Positions 2,455 through 23,132 of a stretch of 64,000 nt of DNA are shown piece after piece. The position numbers were made by a program, and so were the translations under genes. Below the pieces are notes generated by a model that was given only the letters and a program-made list of their open reading frames with translations, was not told the DNA's origin and ran no database searches. Positions within the stretch are counted from its first letter, which is position 1, and each line of letters opens with the position of its first letter. Location: the IMG/VR virus record IMGVR_UViG_3300050821_013910, positions 1-64,000 of that record. One strand, 5' to 3'. The stretch comes from a virus.

Positions 2455-3332
2455 CAGCGAGATTCAAAGTAGCCATCCTCGGCTCGACCGGGATGCTGGG
2501 GTCGATGGTCCGGAGGTTCCTCTCCAGCCAGCCGGAGTACGACCTCAGGACCTACTCGCGCAGCGCCCTCGAAGCCGCGCTGATCAACGTCGCCGATCTC
2601 TTCCAGCTGATCTCCGGGCAGGACTACGTGATCAACTGTATCGGGGTGATCAAGCCGCGGATCGACGAGAAGAACCCAGCCTCGGTCCGCGACGCTATTC
2701 AGGTCAATGCACAATTCCCTTACACGCTGGCTCATGCAGCAGAGTGGGCGAAGGTGCGCGTCCTCCAGATCGCCACCGACTGCGTTTACTCGGGCAGGGA
2801 AGGGAACTACCGTGAAGACTCCCTGCACGACGCGACCGACATCTACGGCAAGACCAAGTCGCTGGGGGAAGTGGTCAGCCCCGCCGTCCGCCACCTGCGC
2901 TGCTCGATCATCGGACCTGAACCGGCTGGCCGACCCCGCGACTCCCTCCTCGAATGGTTCCTCGGTCAGCCGAAGGGAGCGCAGGTCAAGGGATTCACCA
3001 ACCACTACTGGAACGGGATCACTACCTTGGCCTTTGCCAAGTTGTGTCATGGGATCATGCGCGAGGGAATCGAACTCCCTCCCCTCCTCCATATCGTCCC
3101 CCAGAAAACAGCAAGCAAGGCAGGACTGTTGGACCAGTTCCGGTACTCCTTCTCCCGCATGGACATTACCGTGGACGAGGTTGCTGCGCCGACAGCCATT
3201 AACCGGACCCTCTCTACCTGCTGTCCCATCGCCAACATCCACCTTTGGAAGGCGGCAGGCTACCCCTACCAGCCTACGATCCAGCAGATGGTCCATGAAC
3301 TAGTTGCGTATGAGAAGGTGGTGGCCCGGTGA
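2451..3332 (+). CDS. NDP-4-keto-6-deoxysugar reductase (RmlD-like SDR)
   Basis: GSTGMLG, INCIG, IATDCVYSG, YGKTKSLGE motifs. Confidence 0.88.
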   Translation: MTARFKVAILGSTGMLGSMVRRFLSSQPEYDLRTYSRSALEAALINVADLFQLISGQDYVINCIGVIKPRIDEKNPASVRDAIQVNAQFPYTLAHAAEWAKVRVLQIATDCVYSGREGNYREDSLHDATDIYGKTKSLGEVVSPAVRHLRCSIIGPEPAGRPRDSLLEWFLGQPKGAQVKGFTNHYWNGITTLAFAKLCHGIMREGIELPPLLHIVPQKTASKAGLLDQFRYSFSRMDITVDEVAAPTAINRTLSTCCPIANIHLWKAAGYPYQPTIQQMVHELVAYEKVVAR

Positions 3333-4444
3333 AGGTCCTCACCCTCCTCGGCACCCGCCCGGAGATCATCCGGCTCAGCCGGGTGATCCCCCGGCTCGAC
3401 CAGGCCCTCGGCCGCGACAATCACATTCTGGTCAACACGGGGCAGAATCCCGACCCCACCCTCTCGGCCAACTTCTTCGGCGAACTCGGGATCAGACAGC
3501 CTGACTACAACCTCCTCGCCTCCGGCTCGTTCGGCCAGCAACTCGGCATCTCCTTCCCGGCCATCGAGCACACCCTCCAGACCGTCCGCCCTGACCGCCT
3601 TCTCGTCCTCGGCGACACCAACTCCTCCCTGGCCGCCATCGTCGCCGCCCGCCTCCTGATCCCCATCTATCACATGGAGGCCGGCAACCGCTCCTTCTCT
3701 CCCTCCAGCCCTGAGGAAGTCAATCGCCGCCTCGTGGACCACGCCTCCACCGTCCTCCTGCCCTACACTGACCGCTCACGCCAGAACCTCCTCGCCGAAG
3801 GCATCCACTCCTCGCGCATATTCGTGGCCGGGAACCCTATCCGCGAGGTGATCGAGCACTATCGCGACCAGTGGGAGACGGGAACGAGGGACGCGCTGGT
3901 ACGGCTGGGTCTGATCGCCAACCAGTTCTTCCTCGTGACCCTGCACCGGGCGGAGAACGTGGACGCGGAAGGCCGACTGCGCCGGTTCATTGAGGCGTTC
4001 AACCAACTCCAATACACCTACCATTATCCTGTCGTCGTCAGCACCCATCCGCACCTCCAGCAGCGAATCGACGCGCTCAACCTGCGTGGGAAGGACCTTA
4101 GCCCCTCCGTGCGCTTCCTCCCCCCCTTTCCCTTCTTCGACTTCCTCCGGCTCCAGATCTCTGCCTTCTGCGTCCTGTCCGACTCCGGGACCGTGCAGGA
4201 GGAGTGCTGTCTGCTCGGGCGGCCCTCGGTGACCTTGCGCGACTCGACGGAACGACCGGAGTGCCTGGAAGCGGGTGCGGGAGTGCTGTCCGGAGCTGAC
4301 CCCGCTGACATTCTCGCTGCGGTCCGGCTGGTCACCTCTCCTGACCGCCCTGCCTGGACCCCGCCTGCTGAGTACCTCCGCCTGAACGTGGCTGAGACCG
4401 TGGTCCGCATCCTCCTCAGCCACCGGGAAGGAGGCGTGGCATGA
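3329..4444 (+). CDS. non-hydrolysing UDP-N-acetylhexosamine 2-epimerase (WecB family, FnlC/WbjD/Cap5G-like)
   Basis: GTRPEIIRLSRVI, TGQN, GDTNS, HMEAGNRS, PEEVNR, TLHRAENVD, SDSGTVQEE, TERPE. Confidence 0.92.
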   Translation: MKVLTLLGTRPEIIRLSRVIPRLDQALGRDNHILVNTGQNPDPTLSANFFGELGIRQPDYNLLASGSFGQQLGISFPAIEHTLQTVRPDRLLVLGDTNSSLAAIVAARLLIPIYHMEAGNRSFSPSSPEEVNRRLVDHASTVLLPYTDRSRQNLLAEGIHSSRIFVAGNPIREVIEHYRDQWETGTRDALVRLGLIANQFFLVTLHRAENVDAEGRLRRFIEAFNQLQYTYHYPVVVSTHPHLQQRIDALNLRGKDLSPSVRFLPPFPFFDFLRLQISAFCVLSDSGTVQEECCLLGRPSVTLRDSTERPECLEAGAGVLSGADPADILAAVRLVTSPDRPAWTPPAEYLRLNVAETVVRILLSHREGGVA

Positions 4445-5409
4445 GAGTCCTCGTGGTCGGCGGCGCCGGGTACGTCGGAGGAGCGGTCACGGACCTTCTC
4501 CAGCAGCCCTTCTATCACCCTACCCCCCACTCCTTCCAGGTCTACGACTCCCTCCTCTACGAGGATCAGTTTCGCAAGCCCGTGCCCTTCTGCCGCGGCG
4601 ACGTCCGCGACCACTCGCGCCTCCTGCCCCTCCTCCACCAGTCCGACGTGGTCCTCTGGCTGGCCGCCCTGGTCGGCGACGGGGCCTGTGCGCTCGACCC
4701 CCCGGCCGCCGTCGAGGTCAACCAGGAGTCGGTCCGGTGGCTGGCGGAGAACTTCCCCGGCCGGATCATCTTCCTCTCGACCTGCTCGGTCTACGGGCAG
4801 GGGGAGGGAGAACTGACCGAGTCCTCGCCGACCAATCCCCTGTCCGTGTATGCGACGACCAAGCTGGCCGCCGAGCAGACTCTAGCCGACCATCCCAACT
4901 GCCTGATCTTCCGCCTCGGCACTCTGTTCGGACTCTCCGACCACTTCTCGCGCGTGCGGTTCGACCTCGTGGTGAACACTCTCACTCTCCGTGCGCAACG
5001 AGAAGGCAGGCTGACCGTGTTCGGCGGCGACCAGTTCCGTCCGCTCCTCCACGTCCGCGACGCCGCCGAGGCTATCGTCTCCGCCATTCCCACTCGCCAG
5101 ACTGGCATCTACAACCTGCGCTACCGCAACTACTCGATCTCGGAACTGGCTGATCTAGTGGCGGCTGAGTTCCCCGGTCTGGAGATCACCTCCACGCCCC
5201 AGCACTTCGAGGACCACCGGAACTACCGGGTCAGCTCCCTCGCCGCCGCACGGGACCTCCGCTTCTATCCGCGGCGGACCGTCAGCGAGGGCATCCGCGA
5301 GATCAAGCGCCTGCTGGACGAGGGCCGCCTTACCAACCCGGACCACGCGCGCCACGGGAACGAGCGGCACTTGGCCGCCCGGCGGATGGAGATGGAGGCG
5401 GCTAGATGA
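4441..5409 (+). CDS. NAD-dependent sugar epimerase/dehydratase (extended SDR)
   Basis: GGAGYVG, LAALVGD, STCSVYG, YATTK, RFDLVVN, RPLLHVRD. Confidence 0.9.
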   Translation: MRVLVVGGAGYVGGAVTDLLQQPFYHPTPHSFQVYDSLLYEDQFRKPVPFCRGDVRDHSRLLPLLHQSDVVLWLAALVGDGACALDPPAAVEVNQESVRWLAENFPGRIIFLSTCSVYGQGEGELTESSPTNPLSVYATTKLAAEQTLADHPNCLIFRLGTLFGLSDHFSRVRFDLVVNTLTLRAQREGRLTVFGGDQFRPLLHVRDAAEAIVSAIPTRQTGIYNLRYRNYSISELADLVAAEFPGLEITSTPQHFEDHRNYRVSSLAAARDLRFYPRRTVSEGIREIKRLLDEGRLTNPDHARHGNERHLAARRMEMEAAR

Positions 5410-19764: not shown

Positions 19765-21525
19765 ATGATCGCCAACCCCTCGCGCAAGAGCGCGAAGCAG
19801 GAGCACATCGATCCGAGGGCGAGGCATCTAGAGGACTGGATACAAGCGTCTGACTCCGCGCGCAACAAGGCATTGGGAGAGGGCTTCGCTAAGGCTGCGG
19901 AAGATTTGTATAACCTCAGCGACGCCATGACGCCGGGGCCTGTCTACAGGCCTTCCTTAAGCATCCCCATGCTGCAAAGAATAATGCTGGAGGAGTCCAA
20001 CCAAGTCAGCAGCCTGAGTCCGCGTATGTACGTCTTCCCGTCGGCGGGCTCCTCCGATCCTTCCTACAGCGGTGCCCAGCAAGCCGACCCTTCTCTCCCC
20101 TCTACTACTTCGCGTGACTTAGCGCGTGAAGTGTCCCTCCAGGCGCAGTGGCAGATCAGCAAGATGAACTTGCACCTGCTGATGGCCGGACTAACTGCCC
20201 GGTATTGTGGAGCTGGCTGGATAGTCTCGGGGTTTGATCCTGACTTGAGTCGCGCTCGCGGGGGCATGTGGGCTCGATCTATTGATCCCCGGCTGGTGTT
20301 TTTTGATCCTGGGACCGACTACACCTGGAACCCCTCCTACGCTGGCTGGCGGACTTGGATGAACCTCGAAGACGTCCGGCTGAAATGGCCCGAGACCTCC
20401 CGCGCCGTCCAGCCCAAGCACACCTCGGGCGGGTTCCAGCCTTTCTCGGGGGACTCAGGTTATGGTATCTCGCAGCCGCCCGGCCCGATGTCGTCGATGC
20501 CCTCGGCCTCGGGCCAGAACGCCAAGACTCAGGTAAGCGAATCGCGAGTCTTAGTAACCCACTGCTTCTGTCGCGACTACACCCGCGTTCAGGTCGAGAA
20601 GCCGGATGTGCCGCAGACCTCGCTCATTGATCCAGAGGTCCGGCTGAAGTATCCCAATGGCAGGTGGATCGTGGAGGCAGAAGGCGTTATCCTCCAGGAC
20701 GGCGACAATCCCTACCCACCGCGGCGCGATCTCATGGCCCCGACCTTTCCGCTGTTCCCGAACTGGGTCCTCCCTCCCCTCTTCGGACCCTGGGGCATCC
20801 CCGTCACCCGCATGACCGAAAACCTCCAGCGCCTGGCCCAGCGCTTCTACACCCAGATCTTCGAGAACGGCCTCCGGATGAACAACGGGGTATGGTTCAT
20901 CGATGAGAACACCGGGATCGACATCGACGGGTTCGGCGGGCTGCCTGGCGAAGTCTGCACGATCAAGCCGGGGTCGCGCATTCCCTCGACCGTCACCCCT
21001 AACGCGATGGGAGCCGGAGCGCTGCAGGGGGCCGAGAAACTCCTTGCCCTCCAGAACGACTGCCTCGGGTTCTCAGCCAGCCGCCAGGGCGAGCCGGGCG
21101 CGGGGAACGTCTCGACCGACCTTTTCGACAGCGCTGTCCTCCAGTCCTCCGGTCTCCTCCAACTGGCCGGCCGGTTCCTCGCCGAGACAGCCGAGTCGAT
21201 CGGCAGTTTCATGTTCGACACCATGTGCAAGTACCAGCAGAAATCCACTCTAGCCTACAAGGGACCGGAAGGAATTTCCCTAGCCAGTTGGAACGGTCAG
21301 GTTGATCCGATGACTTATGACCTTGCACTGGACGATGCCAGCGTGCGCCCGCTGAGTGAGGCAGTTATCAGAAAAATCACGCCTGACCTGATGAAATCTG
21401 GAGTTGTAAGTCCCGAGCGCGGACTCCGCACCCTCGGCTATCCCGATCCCGAAGGTGTTTCTCGCGAGCAGGAAACTTCGCAGGCCCTAGCTGCACTAGC
21501 CAAAGTCAGATCAGGCAGGAAATGA
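19765..21525 (+). CDS. portal protein
   Basis: 586 aa between terL and capsid genes; IDPRLVFFDP, YPNGRWIV..GVILQDGDNPY, PWGIP motifs typical of podovirus-like portals; possible true start ATC 19750. Confidence 0.8.
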   Translation: MIANPSRKSAKQEHIDPRARHLEDWIQASDSARNKALGEGFAKAAEDLYNLSDAMTPGPVYRPSLSIPMLQRIMLEESNQVSSLSPRMYVFPSAGSSDPSYSGAQQADPSLPSTTSRDLAREVSLQAQWQISKMNLHLLMAGLTARYCGAGWIVSGFDPDLSRARGGMWARSIDPRLVFFDPGTDYTWNPSYAGWRTWMNLEDVRLKWPETSRAVQPKHTSGGFQPFSGDSGYGISQPPGPMSSMPSASGQNAKTQVSESRVLVTHCFCRDYTRVQVEKPDVPQTSLIDPEVRLKYPNGRWIVEAEGVILQDGDNPYPPRRDLMAPTFPLFPNWVLPPLFGPWGIPVTRMTENLQRLAQRFYTQIFENGLRMNNGVWFIDENTGIDIDGFGGLPGEVCTIKPGSRIPSTVTPNAMGAGALQGAEKLLALQNDCLGFSASRQGEPGAGNVSTDLFDSAVLQSSGLLQLAGRFLAETAESIGSFMFDTMCKYQQKSTLAYKGPEGISLASWNGQVDPMTYDLALDDASVRPLSEAVIRKITPDLMKSGVVSPERGLRTLGYPDPEGVSREQETSQALAALAKVRSGRK

Positions 21526-21845
21526 GGAAGACAGCCATGCAGACTCCCGTCGCCGACCAACCCGCCCCCTCGCGACCCCGACCACACCCACACGTTCCTG
21601 TTCGGGAGGAGACAGAGATGGAGTCGGCCTCCGCCTTGGCTTCCCCCGCCCGCTCTGTCCCTCCTCATTCGTGGAAGGGACATTGGCTATCCGCGCGAGA
21701 ATTTGCCGGAGTAATGAACCGTAAGGAACAAACTATCTACAAATGGGCGCGGATTGGAACCTTGGCGGAATTCCAAATTTCTGTATGTAAGTTTCAAGGA
21801 CGTAAGCCGCACACGGCTAGGTTATGGATTCTTAATCCATTCTAG
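21522..21845 (+). CDS. HTH DNA-binding protein (excisionase/MerR-like)
   Basis: WLSAREFAGVMNRKEQTIYKWARIGTL. Confidence 0.65.
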   Translation: MRKTAMQTPVADQPAPSRPRPHPHVPVREETEMESASALASPARSVPPHSWKGHWLSAREFAGVMNRKEQTIYKWARIGTLAEFQISVCKFQGRKPHTARLWILNPF

Positions 21846-22113
21846 CCGTGCTTGGCATCCCTACTCAACCGATCCTGAACCCAACCGATCCTGACCCGAC
21901 CGGACCCAACCTGACAACTACCACTCCATGCCTCCAGCGAACCTTGTCAGACCAGAGACTGCCATAGCGGACCCGTTGGACCCCACACAACCACTCCATG
22001 CCTATGCAAGCCTGACCGGCCTTTCGGCCCGTTCCACGCCTTGTCGATCCTTGACTTGCCGTATCCAGTCTCGCACCAACTCTCCGCGTTTGTCCTTGTA
22101 CAACCACGCCAAG
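21846..22113 (-). ncRNA. 5-nt-periodic GGN-NN repeat array 2 (candidate guide RNA)
   Basis: minus strand runs GGCAA GTCAA GGATC GACAA GGCGT GGAAC; GGTCA GGCTT GCATA GGCAT GGAGT GGTTG; GGTTG GGTCC GGTCG GGTCA GGATC GGTTG; begins just after the stop of the RAMP-like gene. Confidence 0.7.
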
Positions 22114-22118
22114 GCGGA

Positions 22119-22757
22119 TTATTTTAACTCGACCACGTTGAACGATGTAACTTGGAAGCGTCCAAAACTAGGACGAAAATCACCTACTCCGACGATCCTT
22201 CCTGCGTAAGCAAGTGTCTCATGCAGCATTCGATGGTCGATGTACTCCGGCAGAAGAACTTGCAAACTTACTTTGCATTTCCAACCTGCAAGCATGGCCG
22301 GACGAACGCGCGTGATTCCATTGCGTTGAATAACTACACGCCGCTGGTCGAGGTAGTCAGGTTCCTTGACTCCGAGGGAGCAGAGTTCTCCGATGGTGCA
22401 AATTCCAGCTTTGAACAAGTCCATCGCTGACTTCCTTGGTGAGCGCGGGTCCTGTCGGAACTTTGACGCACCAATAATACTCATGCGGAAGTATTCAGAT
22501 GGAATCGCAAGAAGTCCCTTCACGTCGCGGTACAGATAGCTCTCGATGTTATCCGACTTCTTCGCCGCCGACCCCTTTTTGCTTGCCGCCTTCTCGGCAA
22601 CGGCCTCACAACTCCAGCGATGGAAGAGGATCGACGCCGTGCCTTCAATCTCAGCCTCGATCATGTAAGGGGACGATAGCTCGATGTCGTCCTTTGCATC
22701 GTTCGTGGTGTTACTCAGTGCTGTTGCCTTGGTTGCCATTTCTTTCTCTTGCTCCAT
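22119..22757 (-). CDS. stand-alone RAMP/Cas7-like protein
   Basis: N-terminal strand IEAEIEGTASILFH, LAIPSEYFRMSI, RVRPAM..W...L, C-terminal Gly loop AGRIVGVGDFRPSFGRFQV; alternative start 22739. Confidence 0.7.
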   Translation of the reverse strand: MEQEKEMATKATALSNTTNDAKDDIELSSPYMIEAEIEGTASILFHRWSCEAVAEKAASKKGSAAKKSDNIESYLYRDVKGLLAIPSEYFRMSIIGASKFRQDPRSPRKSAMDLFKAGICTIGELCSLGVKEPDYLDQRRVVIQRNGITRVRPAMLAGWKCKVSLQVLLPEYIDHRMLHETLAYAGRIVGVGDFRPSFGRFQVTSFNVVELK

Positions 22758-22770
22758 TCCTTGATTCGTA

Positions 22771-22835
22771 GTGCCTTGCCCAAACTAGCCACGTCTTGTC
22801 AAAACATGCCAATCCGTACCCGGACCCGCCGAGCC
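22771..22835 (-). ncRNA. 5-nt-periodic array 1 (13 in-phase pentamers)
   Basis: GGCTC GGCGG GTCCG GGTAC GGATT GGCAT GTTTT GACAA GACGT GGCTA GTTTG GGCAA GGCAC; all 13 start with G and 8 with GG. Confidence 0.75.
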
Positions 22836-22836
22836 A

Positions 22837-22974
22837 TTAGAGTTTGTACTTCCGTGCGAGTTCTCGAAGCGCCAGTTCAATGACCGCCGAACGCTTGAGT
22901 CCAAGCACCCTTGAGAGTTGGATCAGGAGGTTCAATCCAACTTGCCCTAGTCGGATACTTGTAGGAGAACTCAT
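22837..22974 (-). CDS. 45-aa ribbon-helix-helix (CopG/Arc-like) regulator (not in track)
   Basis: MSSPTSIRLGQVGLNLLIQLSRVLGLKRSAVIELALRELARKYKL. Confidence 0.75.
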   Translation of the reverse strand: MSSPTSIRLGQVGLNLLIQLSRVLGLKRSAVIELALRELARKYKL

Positions 22975-22980
22975 ACTGGA

Positions 22981-23009
22981 AATGTAGTGAATATGCGCTA
23001 CAAAGTCAA
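22981..23009 (-). promoter_or_regulatory. sigma70-type promoter with overlapping palindromic operator; leaderless transcript
   Basis: TTGACT-17 nt-TACATT, ATG 6 nt downstream; TGTAGCG-N6-CACTACA inverted repeat over spacer and -10. Confidence 0.7.
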
Positions 23010-23132
23010 GAGTTTTTTATACAGTGTTATCCCACCCCTGCGCCCTTCTCCCTCCCCTCGCCGTACCATTGTCCTCAATCACCCCCGCCCTTCCAGCACC
23101 TCCGGTCGTGCGCGTGTGAAAGGAGAATCATC

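Follow-up and report, generated by a model that had tools for sequence, protein, structure and literature searches.

The question raised by the locus studied here is why a small phage gene should lie between non-coding blocks in which a G recurs every five nucleotides. The locus occupies positions 21,846 to 23,009 of a DNA stretch of 64,000 nucleotides (positions 1 to 64,000 of IMG/VR virus record IMGVR_UViG_3300050821_013910; this whole stretch is called the window below), and the source record is a virus genome of 74,562 bp, estimated to be 97% complete, from a soil metagenome. An earlier note, made from the letters of the window alone, had proposed a compact RNA-guided system and had pointed to a resemblance to VIPR (Viral Interference Programmable Repeat) loci. 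VIPR was described in two 2026 preprints, one set of data being a cryo-EM structure deposited as PDB 36pp (10.64898/2026.04.26.720920, 10.64898/2026.04.26.720927). We think that this assignment was right: homology to the Vipr protein of phage SUSP1, the residues that contact RNA and DNA, and GGY/NN arrays on the same strand all point to it, and we put the probability that the cassette is a VIPR system borne by a 74.5-kb soil phage at roughly 0.9. Judged by its sequence, the locus is a distant and new member of a kind that has itself already been published.

The cassette takes up the minus strand of 21800-23010 and runs, in the direction of transcription, from a promoter through an accessory gene of the ribbon-helix-helix (RHH) type, array U, vipr and the downstream arrays to a stem-loop. 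Its features are as follows.

22981..23009, minus strand: promoter TTGACT-17-TACATT, sigma-70-type, 9/12 consensus matches
22837..22974, minus strand: putative RHH (CopG-like) accessory gene, 45 amino acids, weak profile matches
22753..22838, minus strand: upstream vrRNA candidate U, 13 in-phase units followed by a degenerate 3' part
22119..22739, minus strand: vipr, 206 amino acids and stop, a minimal RAMP (Cas7-like) protein by homology to SUSP1 Vipr and predicted Cas7 fold
22031..22110, minus strand: downstream vrRNA candidate A, 16 in-phase units
22016..22031, minus strand: intra-array hairpin CGGG-CC-GAAA-GG-CCGG, 4-5 bp stem with a GNRA-type loop
21856..22017, minus strand: pentamer segments B-F (8, 8, 3, ~8 and ~3 units), separated by phase shifts
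21811..21851, minus strand: terminal stem-loop, shared with the end of a convergent open reading frame (ORF) of 107 amino acids

Counted from its first ATG (22757), the vipr ORF extends over 22119-22757 on the minus strand and encodes the 212 amino acids given in the earlier note. The ORF stands, and its length is probably to be revised: since nearly all database homologues have 206 amino acids, with a start equivalent to the ATG at 22739, we consider this second start more likely. The 206-residue protein has no match in Pfam, and its only match in PHROGs is phrog_4652, a family whose function is not known there; it has 5,815 relatives among database proteins at E <=1e-3, none of them carrying a Pfam domain, and there are metagenomic relatives of 80-88% identity. 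When the single sequence is searched against the whole PDB, the sole match is chain D of 36pp, "SUSP1 Vipr protein" (phmmer E 1.1e-3), and a profile built from 26 homologues recovers SUSP1 Vipr again with an E-value of 7.4e-10, positions 28-198 being aligned with residues 5-188 of 202, so that the match covers 171 of the 206 positions and is near full length.

The residues to which the cryo-EM structure assigns a role are especially telling. In SUSP1 Vipr, H17 and D177 read G1, R138 and W178 hold G2, the pyrimidine pocket is formed by E71, M72 and R179, and K33 touches the backbone of the target (10.64898/2026.04.26.720927). H17, D177, R138 and W178 align with H40, D187, R146 and F188 of the window protein (the aromatic character of the last being kept), and E71, M72, R179 and K33 with E82, Y83, R189 and K55; with the exception of Y83, all these positions are invariant across the 26 homologues. 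An AlphaFold model of the window protein (pLDDT 83.7), when compared with the PDB by Foldseek, has best matches that are all Cas7-type subunits (E 5.6e-7), and the modelled protein thus has the Cas7/Csm3 fold, as had been supposed from its layout of strands, helix and terminal loop.

The second component of a VIPR locus is its repeat RNA. The 65-nt block of 13 G-initial pentamers that had been noticed upstream of the gene is present at 22771-22835 on the minus strand: all 13 units begin with G, position 2 is G in 8/13 and position 3 is a pyrimidine in 12/13, and the variable dinucleotides read TC GG CG AC TT AT TT AA GT TA TG AA AC. A 65-nt stretch with 13/13 in-phase G occurs only once in the 64-kb window, both strands considered. 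The degenerate 3' part of U reaches into the ribosome-binding region of vipr. Downstream of the gene, about 270 nt of further pentamers had been announced; we find about 257 nt (21856-22112, minus strand, ~46 units), and these do not form one clean array, being broken into several segments by at least five phase shifts (one of them at the hairpin 22016-22031) and also carrying a small tandem duplication. Segments B-F contain a repeated GGCATGGAGTGGT block and this duplication, of 16 nt. A Viterbi parser that scores only G1 and G2 finds exactly two periodic blocks in both strands of the 74,562-bp genome, and these are the two arrays. Taking as a candidate vrRNA at least four tandem YNNGG/GGYNN units that flank vipr on its own strand, the locus has 13 units upstream and ~46 downstream of the gene, on the same strand.

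Does this association extend beyond the window? We assembled 150 loci encoding relatives of the protein (80 viral contigs and 70 genomes), 151 with the window (individual loci are designated by L and a number), and parsed them with a procedure blind to positions 3-5 of the pentamer. At least 50 periodic bases are found on the sense strand of vipr in 149 of the 151 loci and on the opposite strand in 5, which amounts to 43,495 periodic bases against 1,373. Over the 8,339 units, G1 is G in 92% and G2 in 81%, a pyrimidine stands at position 3 in 86%, and the information content of positions 4 and 5 is just 0.03 and 0.01 bit, so the NN positions are indeed far more variable than the GG positions across homologues, and the flanks of these are periodic, both of which the earlier note had singled out as checks. 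The arrays lie within about 400 nt upstream and about 700 nt downstream of vipr. Among named phages with complete genomes, phage DSL-LC04 (OR003939.1) encodes the closest homologue, WJZ48083.1 (56.6% identity, 95% coverage); there, a YNNGG array fills a 320-nt intergenic region (2157-2476) upstream of the vipr homologue (2477-3094). DSL-LC04 differs from the window in that the array is upstream only, that the downstream gene is a real ORF of 147 amino acids and that there is no RHH gene.

These loci also have a lesson for annotation. Pentamer arrays translate into five-residue repeats (G-x-x-R-x-G-like) and are rendered by gene callers as false ORFs, reported as small proteins; the 80-residue ORF at 21865-22107 (minus strand) of the window is such an artefact, and many related loci offer further cases, among them L022 (2773-2904) and L047 (2823-2939). 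Conversely, the Vipr homologue of DSL-LC04 is labelled in GenBank as a "helix-turn-helix transcriptional regulator", which is probably an annotation error.

If each protomer grips a constant GGN, the variable dinucleotides should spell a gapped code, and the gap had been left between 0 and 3 nt in the earlier note. In the published systems it is exactly one base (10.64898/2026.04.26.720920, 10.64898/2026.04.26.720927); the grip on GGY and the gapped reading thus agree with the cryo-EM structure, and the range of gaps has to be narrowed. We compared all against all, as exact gapped matches, the NN strings of the in-phase runs of the 151 loci with the same loci after masking of their arrays, and with the genome of the window phage. 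With skips of 0, 1, 2 and 3 bases there are 1, 74, 6 and 20 exact matches of 8 units, and 0, 21, 0 and 12 of 9 units. Among the three-base-skip matches of 10 units, all those listed are unmasked array at the edges of loci, matching near-identical loci, and for this reason we read the three-base-skip counts as leftover array. The one-base-skip rule therefore holds in the clade of the window, as recovered from sequence alone. The longest match is 16/17 units (the L086 guide on L118); the 53 guide-target alignments, many of them from near-identical prophage loci, represent about nine independent families. When the match is read in the co-oriented frame, the NN bases occupy the first two codon positions and the skip falls on the wobble base.

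The genes hit in this way belong to other phages, on both strands, and comprise a DNA helicase (two sites, one reading TGGGKTPVI), a Sak4-like ATPase, an exonuclease VIII-type nuclease, an SSB-like DUF669 protein, a P22-like portal (weak match) and vipr itself, the L059 guide at 3989 matching 8/8 units in the vipr gene of L013 (3052-3074); VIPR-against-VIPR targeting has been reported for other clades (10.64898/2026.04.26.720920). In L106-L124, which are prophages of Phycisphaerae metagenome-assembled genomes, several guides converge on conserved motifs in genes that sister prophages use for replication and recombination, namely those of the helicase (two sites) and of the Sak4-like ATPase, and the motif EPFRCGVW of exonuclease VIII. 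In L001, the closest relative of the window locus (90% protein identity), the last guide (3996-4045) matches 10/10 units in a portal-like gene of L004 (5073-5101, peptide QTVGMNNYKS), and the portal-like copy of L001 itself (4549-5028) reads QTVGVNSYKS; two codons differ (M/V and N/S), and this guide therefore distinguishes a close relative from self. In none of these matches do the final one or two units of a run pair, which fits a role as a handle. The idea that such systems are aimed at competing phages is thus supported for the clade, and for the window's own guides we found no target.

For the latter, the search with gapped patterns drawn from the NN strings, which the earlier note had recommended, came back empty from the phage's own genome, the related loci, IMG/VR, metagenome contigs and 40 whole viral records. 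In the own genome the best one-base-skip matches reach 17/26 and 19/32 NN bases (<=65%), and the perfect three-base-skip matches are the arrays themselves; published VIPR systems likewise show no self-targeting (10.64898/2026.04.26.720920). Under any skip rule, the 150 related loci contain no outlier for the window guides. Exact scans of IMG/VR gave 0 matches for U in full, U units 1-10, U units 4-13, A in full, A units 1-10 and A units 7-16, exact scans of metagenome contigs gave 0 for U in full and A units 5-16, and A units 1-14 gave 0 with <=3 mismatches in the 40 whole viral records of relatives. These negatives are weak ones, as the scans of the collections were exact only, three of those with guide A included its last two units, later judged to be a handle, and published target searches accept >=80% NN match (10.64898/2026.04.26.720920). 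One candidate, an HNH lead, found no support: A units 4-12 match 7 IMG/VR contigs, which represent one near-identical sequence (about the number expected by chance) reading QADGDWTNN in a short open frame, with flanking units at chance level (21/32). The 3' units of guide A resemble the portal-directed guide of L001 (GTCAA GGATC G-CAA GGCGT GG); this hints that the two guides share descent and says nothing about the target of A.

What, then, marks the ends of a guide in these long arrays? A hairpin of the form CGGG-NN-loop-NN-CCGG occurs within the arrays of the window, L001, L004 and about ten other loci, its loop being usually GAAA or GCAA, and GGNRT-GGAAC usually stands just 5' of it. Because of this arrangement in relatives, and because the last one or two units of their guides stay unpaired in targets, the last two units of A (GGCGT GGAAC) are probably a conserved handle rather than guide. 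Among 19 aligned copies from 12 loci, the two inner pairs show compensatory changes in 8 cells (C-G to U-A or G-C), a covariation score reached in 0/500 shuffles. The initial copies had been picked by a pattern that requires pairing, and the count was redone without that requirement: among motifs with a 4-nt loop, both inner pairs form in 16/17 inside arrays against 10/67 elsewhere. In VIPR a conserved, structured 3' tail caps each vrRNA; we regard the hairpin as a candidate handle, tail or processing site of this subclade, a role that we infer from its position and pairing. Arrays interspersed with hammerheads have been described for VIPR (10.64898/2026.04.26.720920); the present arrays are not of this kind, as no Rfam family, hammerheads included, is matched by the window even with E allowed to rise to 1, nor by nine relatives at the gathering score. 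At the end of the cassette, the region 21795-21860 folds with -33.3 kcal/mol (z -7.2); the arrays of relatives end in a hairpin and a T-run, no T-run follows the stem-loop in the window, where a terminator scan made no call, and we consider it a candidate terminator or 3' cap.

The promoter that had been pointed out, TTGACT-17-TACATT, is there, at 23009-22981 on the minus strand, and a short inverted repeat within its spacer (TGTAG..CTACA) may serve as an operator. The layout is a shared one: TTGACA-16/18-TAnAnT promoters stand 6 nt ahead of the ATG of the accessory gene in L001, L004, L005 and L006, an equivalent promoter precedes the upstream array in L003, and the spacers of relatives each have their own short palindrome. 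The ATG of the window's RHH gene, too, lies 6 nt past the -10 box, and the transcript should therefore be leaderless. As for the "RHH repressor" of the earlier note, the ORF of 45 amino acids exists, and its RHH identity is CopG-like at weak significance (E 0.004-0.04). The protein falls below the cut-off of Pfam RHH_3 (E 0.037; 14.4 bits against 21.6), one orthologue reaches E 3e-4 with RHH_3 (Pfam RHH models again below their cut-offs), and a profile of four orthologues matches CopG (1b01, 2cpg) over residues 1-38 with E 0.0039; length and strand-helix-helix pattern fit. In relatives with the same promoter layout the accessory gene encodes an RHH or a CxxC..CxxC zinc-ribbon protein, and many have none. 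Compared with the CopG/Arc repressors (1b01, 2cpg), the window protein is alike in its 45 amino acids, its N-terminal strand followed by two helices and the position of its gene directly behind a palindrome-containing promoter, and differs in that the similarity is weak (E 0.004). By analogy with CopG, autorepression would be the most economical reading, and the gene is a candidate autorepressor or an accessory of the vap type (vap1-6 in VIPR).

Putting these elements together, we propose that a single strong promoter would give rise to a transcript beginning at or beside the RHH start codon and carrying the RHH gene, vrRNA U, vipr and the downstream vrRNA array. Vipr protomers would polymerise along the RNA, one per pentamer, each of them locking G1, G2 and Y3 by the beta-sheet His, the thumb Arg and the Asp-aromatic-Arg of the G-loop, so that the exposed N4N5 could pair with double-stranded DNA read as NN-x-NN-x, with one base skipped, and pairing would keep a gene of a rival phage or of another mobile element from being transcribed. 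The CopG-like protein would probably repress the cassette's own promoter through the spacer palindrome. Presumably the transcript is processed into separate vrRNAs, and the window's own guides are presumably active. A weak hint of transcription comes from a soil metatranscriptome of another study, in which a contig of 231 nt covers 22530-22760 with one mismatch; this is the only part of the cassette covered by contigs from RNA runs, and the uncovered arrays are uninformative either way. This contig stops at 22760, the end of the degenerate tail of U (GGAAT GGAGC); the RNA may be processed there, or the assembly may have ended at this point by coincidence.

Several points weigh against our interpretation. 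The canonical GGY is found in 43% of the 63 window units, the third lowest value among 149 loci, and some units, being non-GGY, may escape binding; the window's own guides match no known DNA in searches that were exact or allowed <=3 mismatches; the RHH match is a weak one (E 0.004-0.04), and the accessory proteins of published VIPR systems are winged-helix, helix-turn-helix and HNH proteins, not RHH (10.64898/2026.04.26.720920, 10.64898/2026.04.26.720927); the RNA evidence, finally, is a single contig without strand or ends, for which DNA carry-over is possible. The low GGY content, together with the many phase shifts, the local duplication and a GC content unlike that of the genome (consistent with acquisition from outside), could mean that a genuine VIPR was acquired, that its arrays have since drifted and that the guides are no longer functional, the cassette being a decaying passenger without effect for the phage. 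We hold this to be improbable, as both the promoter and the vipr ORF are intact, the latter having kept all its functional residues, and G1 is still G in 84% of the window units. Moreover L001, at 34% GGY the lowest of the 149 loci, still has a guide that matches 10/10 units in the portal-like gene of L004, and for this reason the relaxed repeats look, from these comparisons, like a trait of the window's subclade and not like decay.

More improbable still, in our opinion, is that protein and periodic RNA serve the biology of the phage itself, for example in the control or protection of its transcripts. The position of the cassette inside a block of structural genes and the fact that Cas7/Csm3 relatives bind RNA targets would speak for such a role; the own genome, however, offers no guide match above 65% of NN bases under any skip rule, the guides of relatives match, on either strand, genes of other phages, and the SUSP1 system binds double-stranded DNA (10.64898/2026.04.26.720920, 10.64898/2026.04.26.720927). 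As to the possibility that the periodicity is a feature of the DNA (G-rich structure or protein sites) or due to chance, and unrelated to the neighbouring gene, it is true that a GG at every fifth base might give rise to G-rich structures in the DNA and that Tandem Repeats Finder calls no simple tandem repeat in the arrays except one 16-nt unit. We nevertheless find it hardly credible in view of the strand bias (43,495 against 1,373 bases, with arrays on the vipr sense strand in 149/151 loci), of compensatory changes in the hairpin, which argue for RNA, of array blocks that are unique in the genome, and of a solved homologue that binds exactly this repeat as RNA (10.64898/2026.04.26.720927).

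We thus return to the VIPR assignment, and to how the window compares with SUSP1, an Escherichia phage whose system exemplifies type II among the VIPR types I-VII. The two have in common a homologous Vipr with all named RNA- and DNA-contact residues, a minimal phage locus with one small accessory gene and neither cas genes nor a CRISPR array, vrRNA arrays of GGY/NN pentamers on both sides of vipr and on the same strand, and (at the level of the window's clade) the one-base-skip rule and targets in other phages. The window differs in that its protein is very distant (the single-sequence E-value is only 1e-3), that in place of a recognised pseudoknot tail it has a short GNRA-capped hairpin inside the arrays, that its repeats are relaxed (GGY 43%) and its accessory gene encodes a presumably leaderless, CopG-like RHH protein of 45 amino acids, and that the phage is an uncultivated one from soil. 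With the Cas7 subunits of CRISPR systems (type III Csm3/Cmr4, type VII Cas7) Vipr would share polymerisation on a guide RNA with a fixed step and bases flipped by a thumb, whereas its step is of 5 nt instead of 6 and its guide is non-contiguous; the window also lacks Cas10, Cas5, Cas6, Cas1, Cas2, a repeat-spacer array and a Pfam RAMPs match. The earlier note had stated that cas genes and a CRISPR array were missing from the window, and for Cas1, the Pfam RAMPs model (PF03787) and CRISPR-like arrays we can extend this to the whole 74.5-kb genome. The other cas genes and the repeat-spacer array expected of a class 1 CRISPR-Cas system are thus wanting, and what remains is a minimal virus-borne locus; this absence, and an occurrence mostly in viruses or proviruses, are traits by which VIPR is separated from CRISPR (10.64898/2026.04.26.720920).

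What does this locus add? VIPR experiments have so far dealt with a few enterobacterial and Pseudomonas elements (10.64898/2026.04.26.720920), and the present case extends the reach of the family, with all RNA-reading residues intact, to an uncultivated soil phage; it also gives independent backing, in a clade far from the published models, to the one-base-skip code and to the targeting of core genes of rival phages. What may be new in detail are the relaxed, hairpin-punctuated arrays, a regulator of RHH type and the fact that the cassette is mobile. The arrays are a candidate alternative way of defining guide ends, which could inform engineering. Much more tentatively, and we are rather doubtful here, the window, L001, L004 and about a dozen more loci might form a subclade with an array architecture that the preprints do not describe: long relaxed G-N-Y-N-N arrays, a GNRA hairpin after GGNRT-GGAAC that replaces the pseudoknot tail or hammerhead, a leaderless promoter under a CopG-like RHH autorepressor, and a cassette mobile between unrelated phages.

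Finally, some remarks on the origin of the cassette and on its neighbours. The low GC content and the reverse orientation that had been noticed are real: the cassette has 52.7% GC (vipr 51.7%, the RHH gene 50%) against 61.2% in the genome, and its orientation is opposite to that of the structural genes on either side. Phages bearing its nearest relatives have 47-52% GC, and the portal gene of L001 and L004 differs from that of the window phage. Because of the GC offset, the inversion and this difference in portal genes, we infer that the cassette was acquired recently and horizontally, as a self-contained unit, from a phage lineage of about 50% GC, and that it behaves like a moron. Its placement "between portal and scaffold" can be kept only in part, as the putative portal (586 amino acids) has just a sub-threshold match to SU10_portal (E 0.006) and the label of scaffold is unsupported; apart from this weak portal match and a K1-lyase match, searches of PHROGs and Pfam left the structural genes nearby without usable annotation. 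Convergent with the cassette is the ORF of 107 amino acids (21522-21845, plus strand), which shares 4 nt with the end of the putative portal gene, matches HTH_17 weakly (E 0.015) and has its stop codon within the terminal stem-loop of the cassette. Farther away, at 40364-43471 on the plus strand, a protein of 1,035 amino acids has a C-terminal K1 capsule-lyase domain (PF24146, E 1.4e-6); it is likely to be a tailspike, and it suggests a capsulated host.

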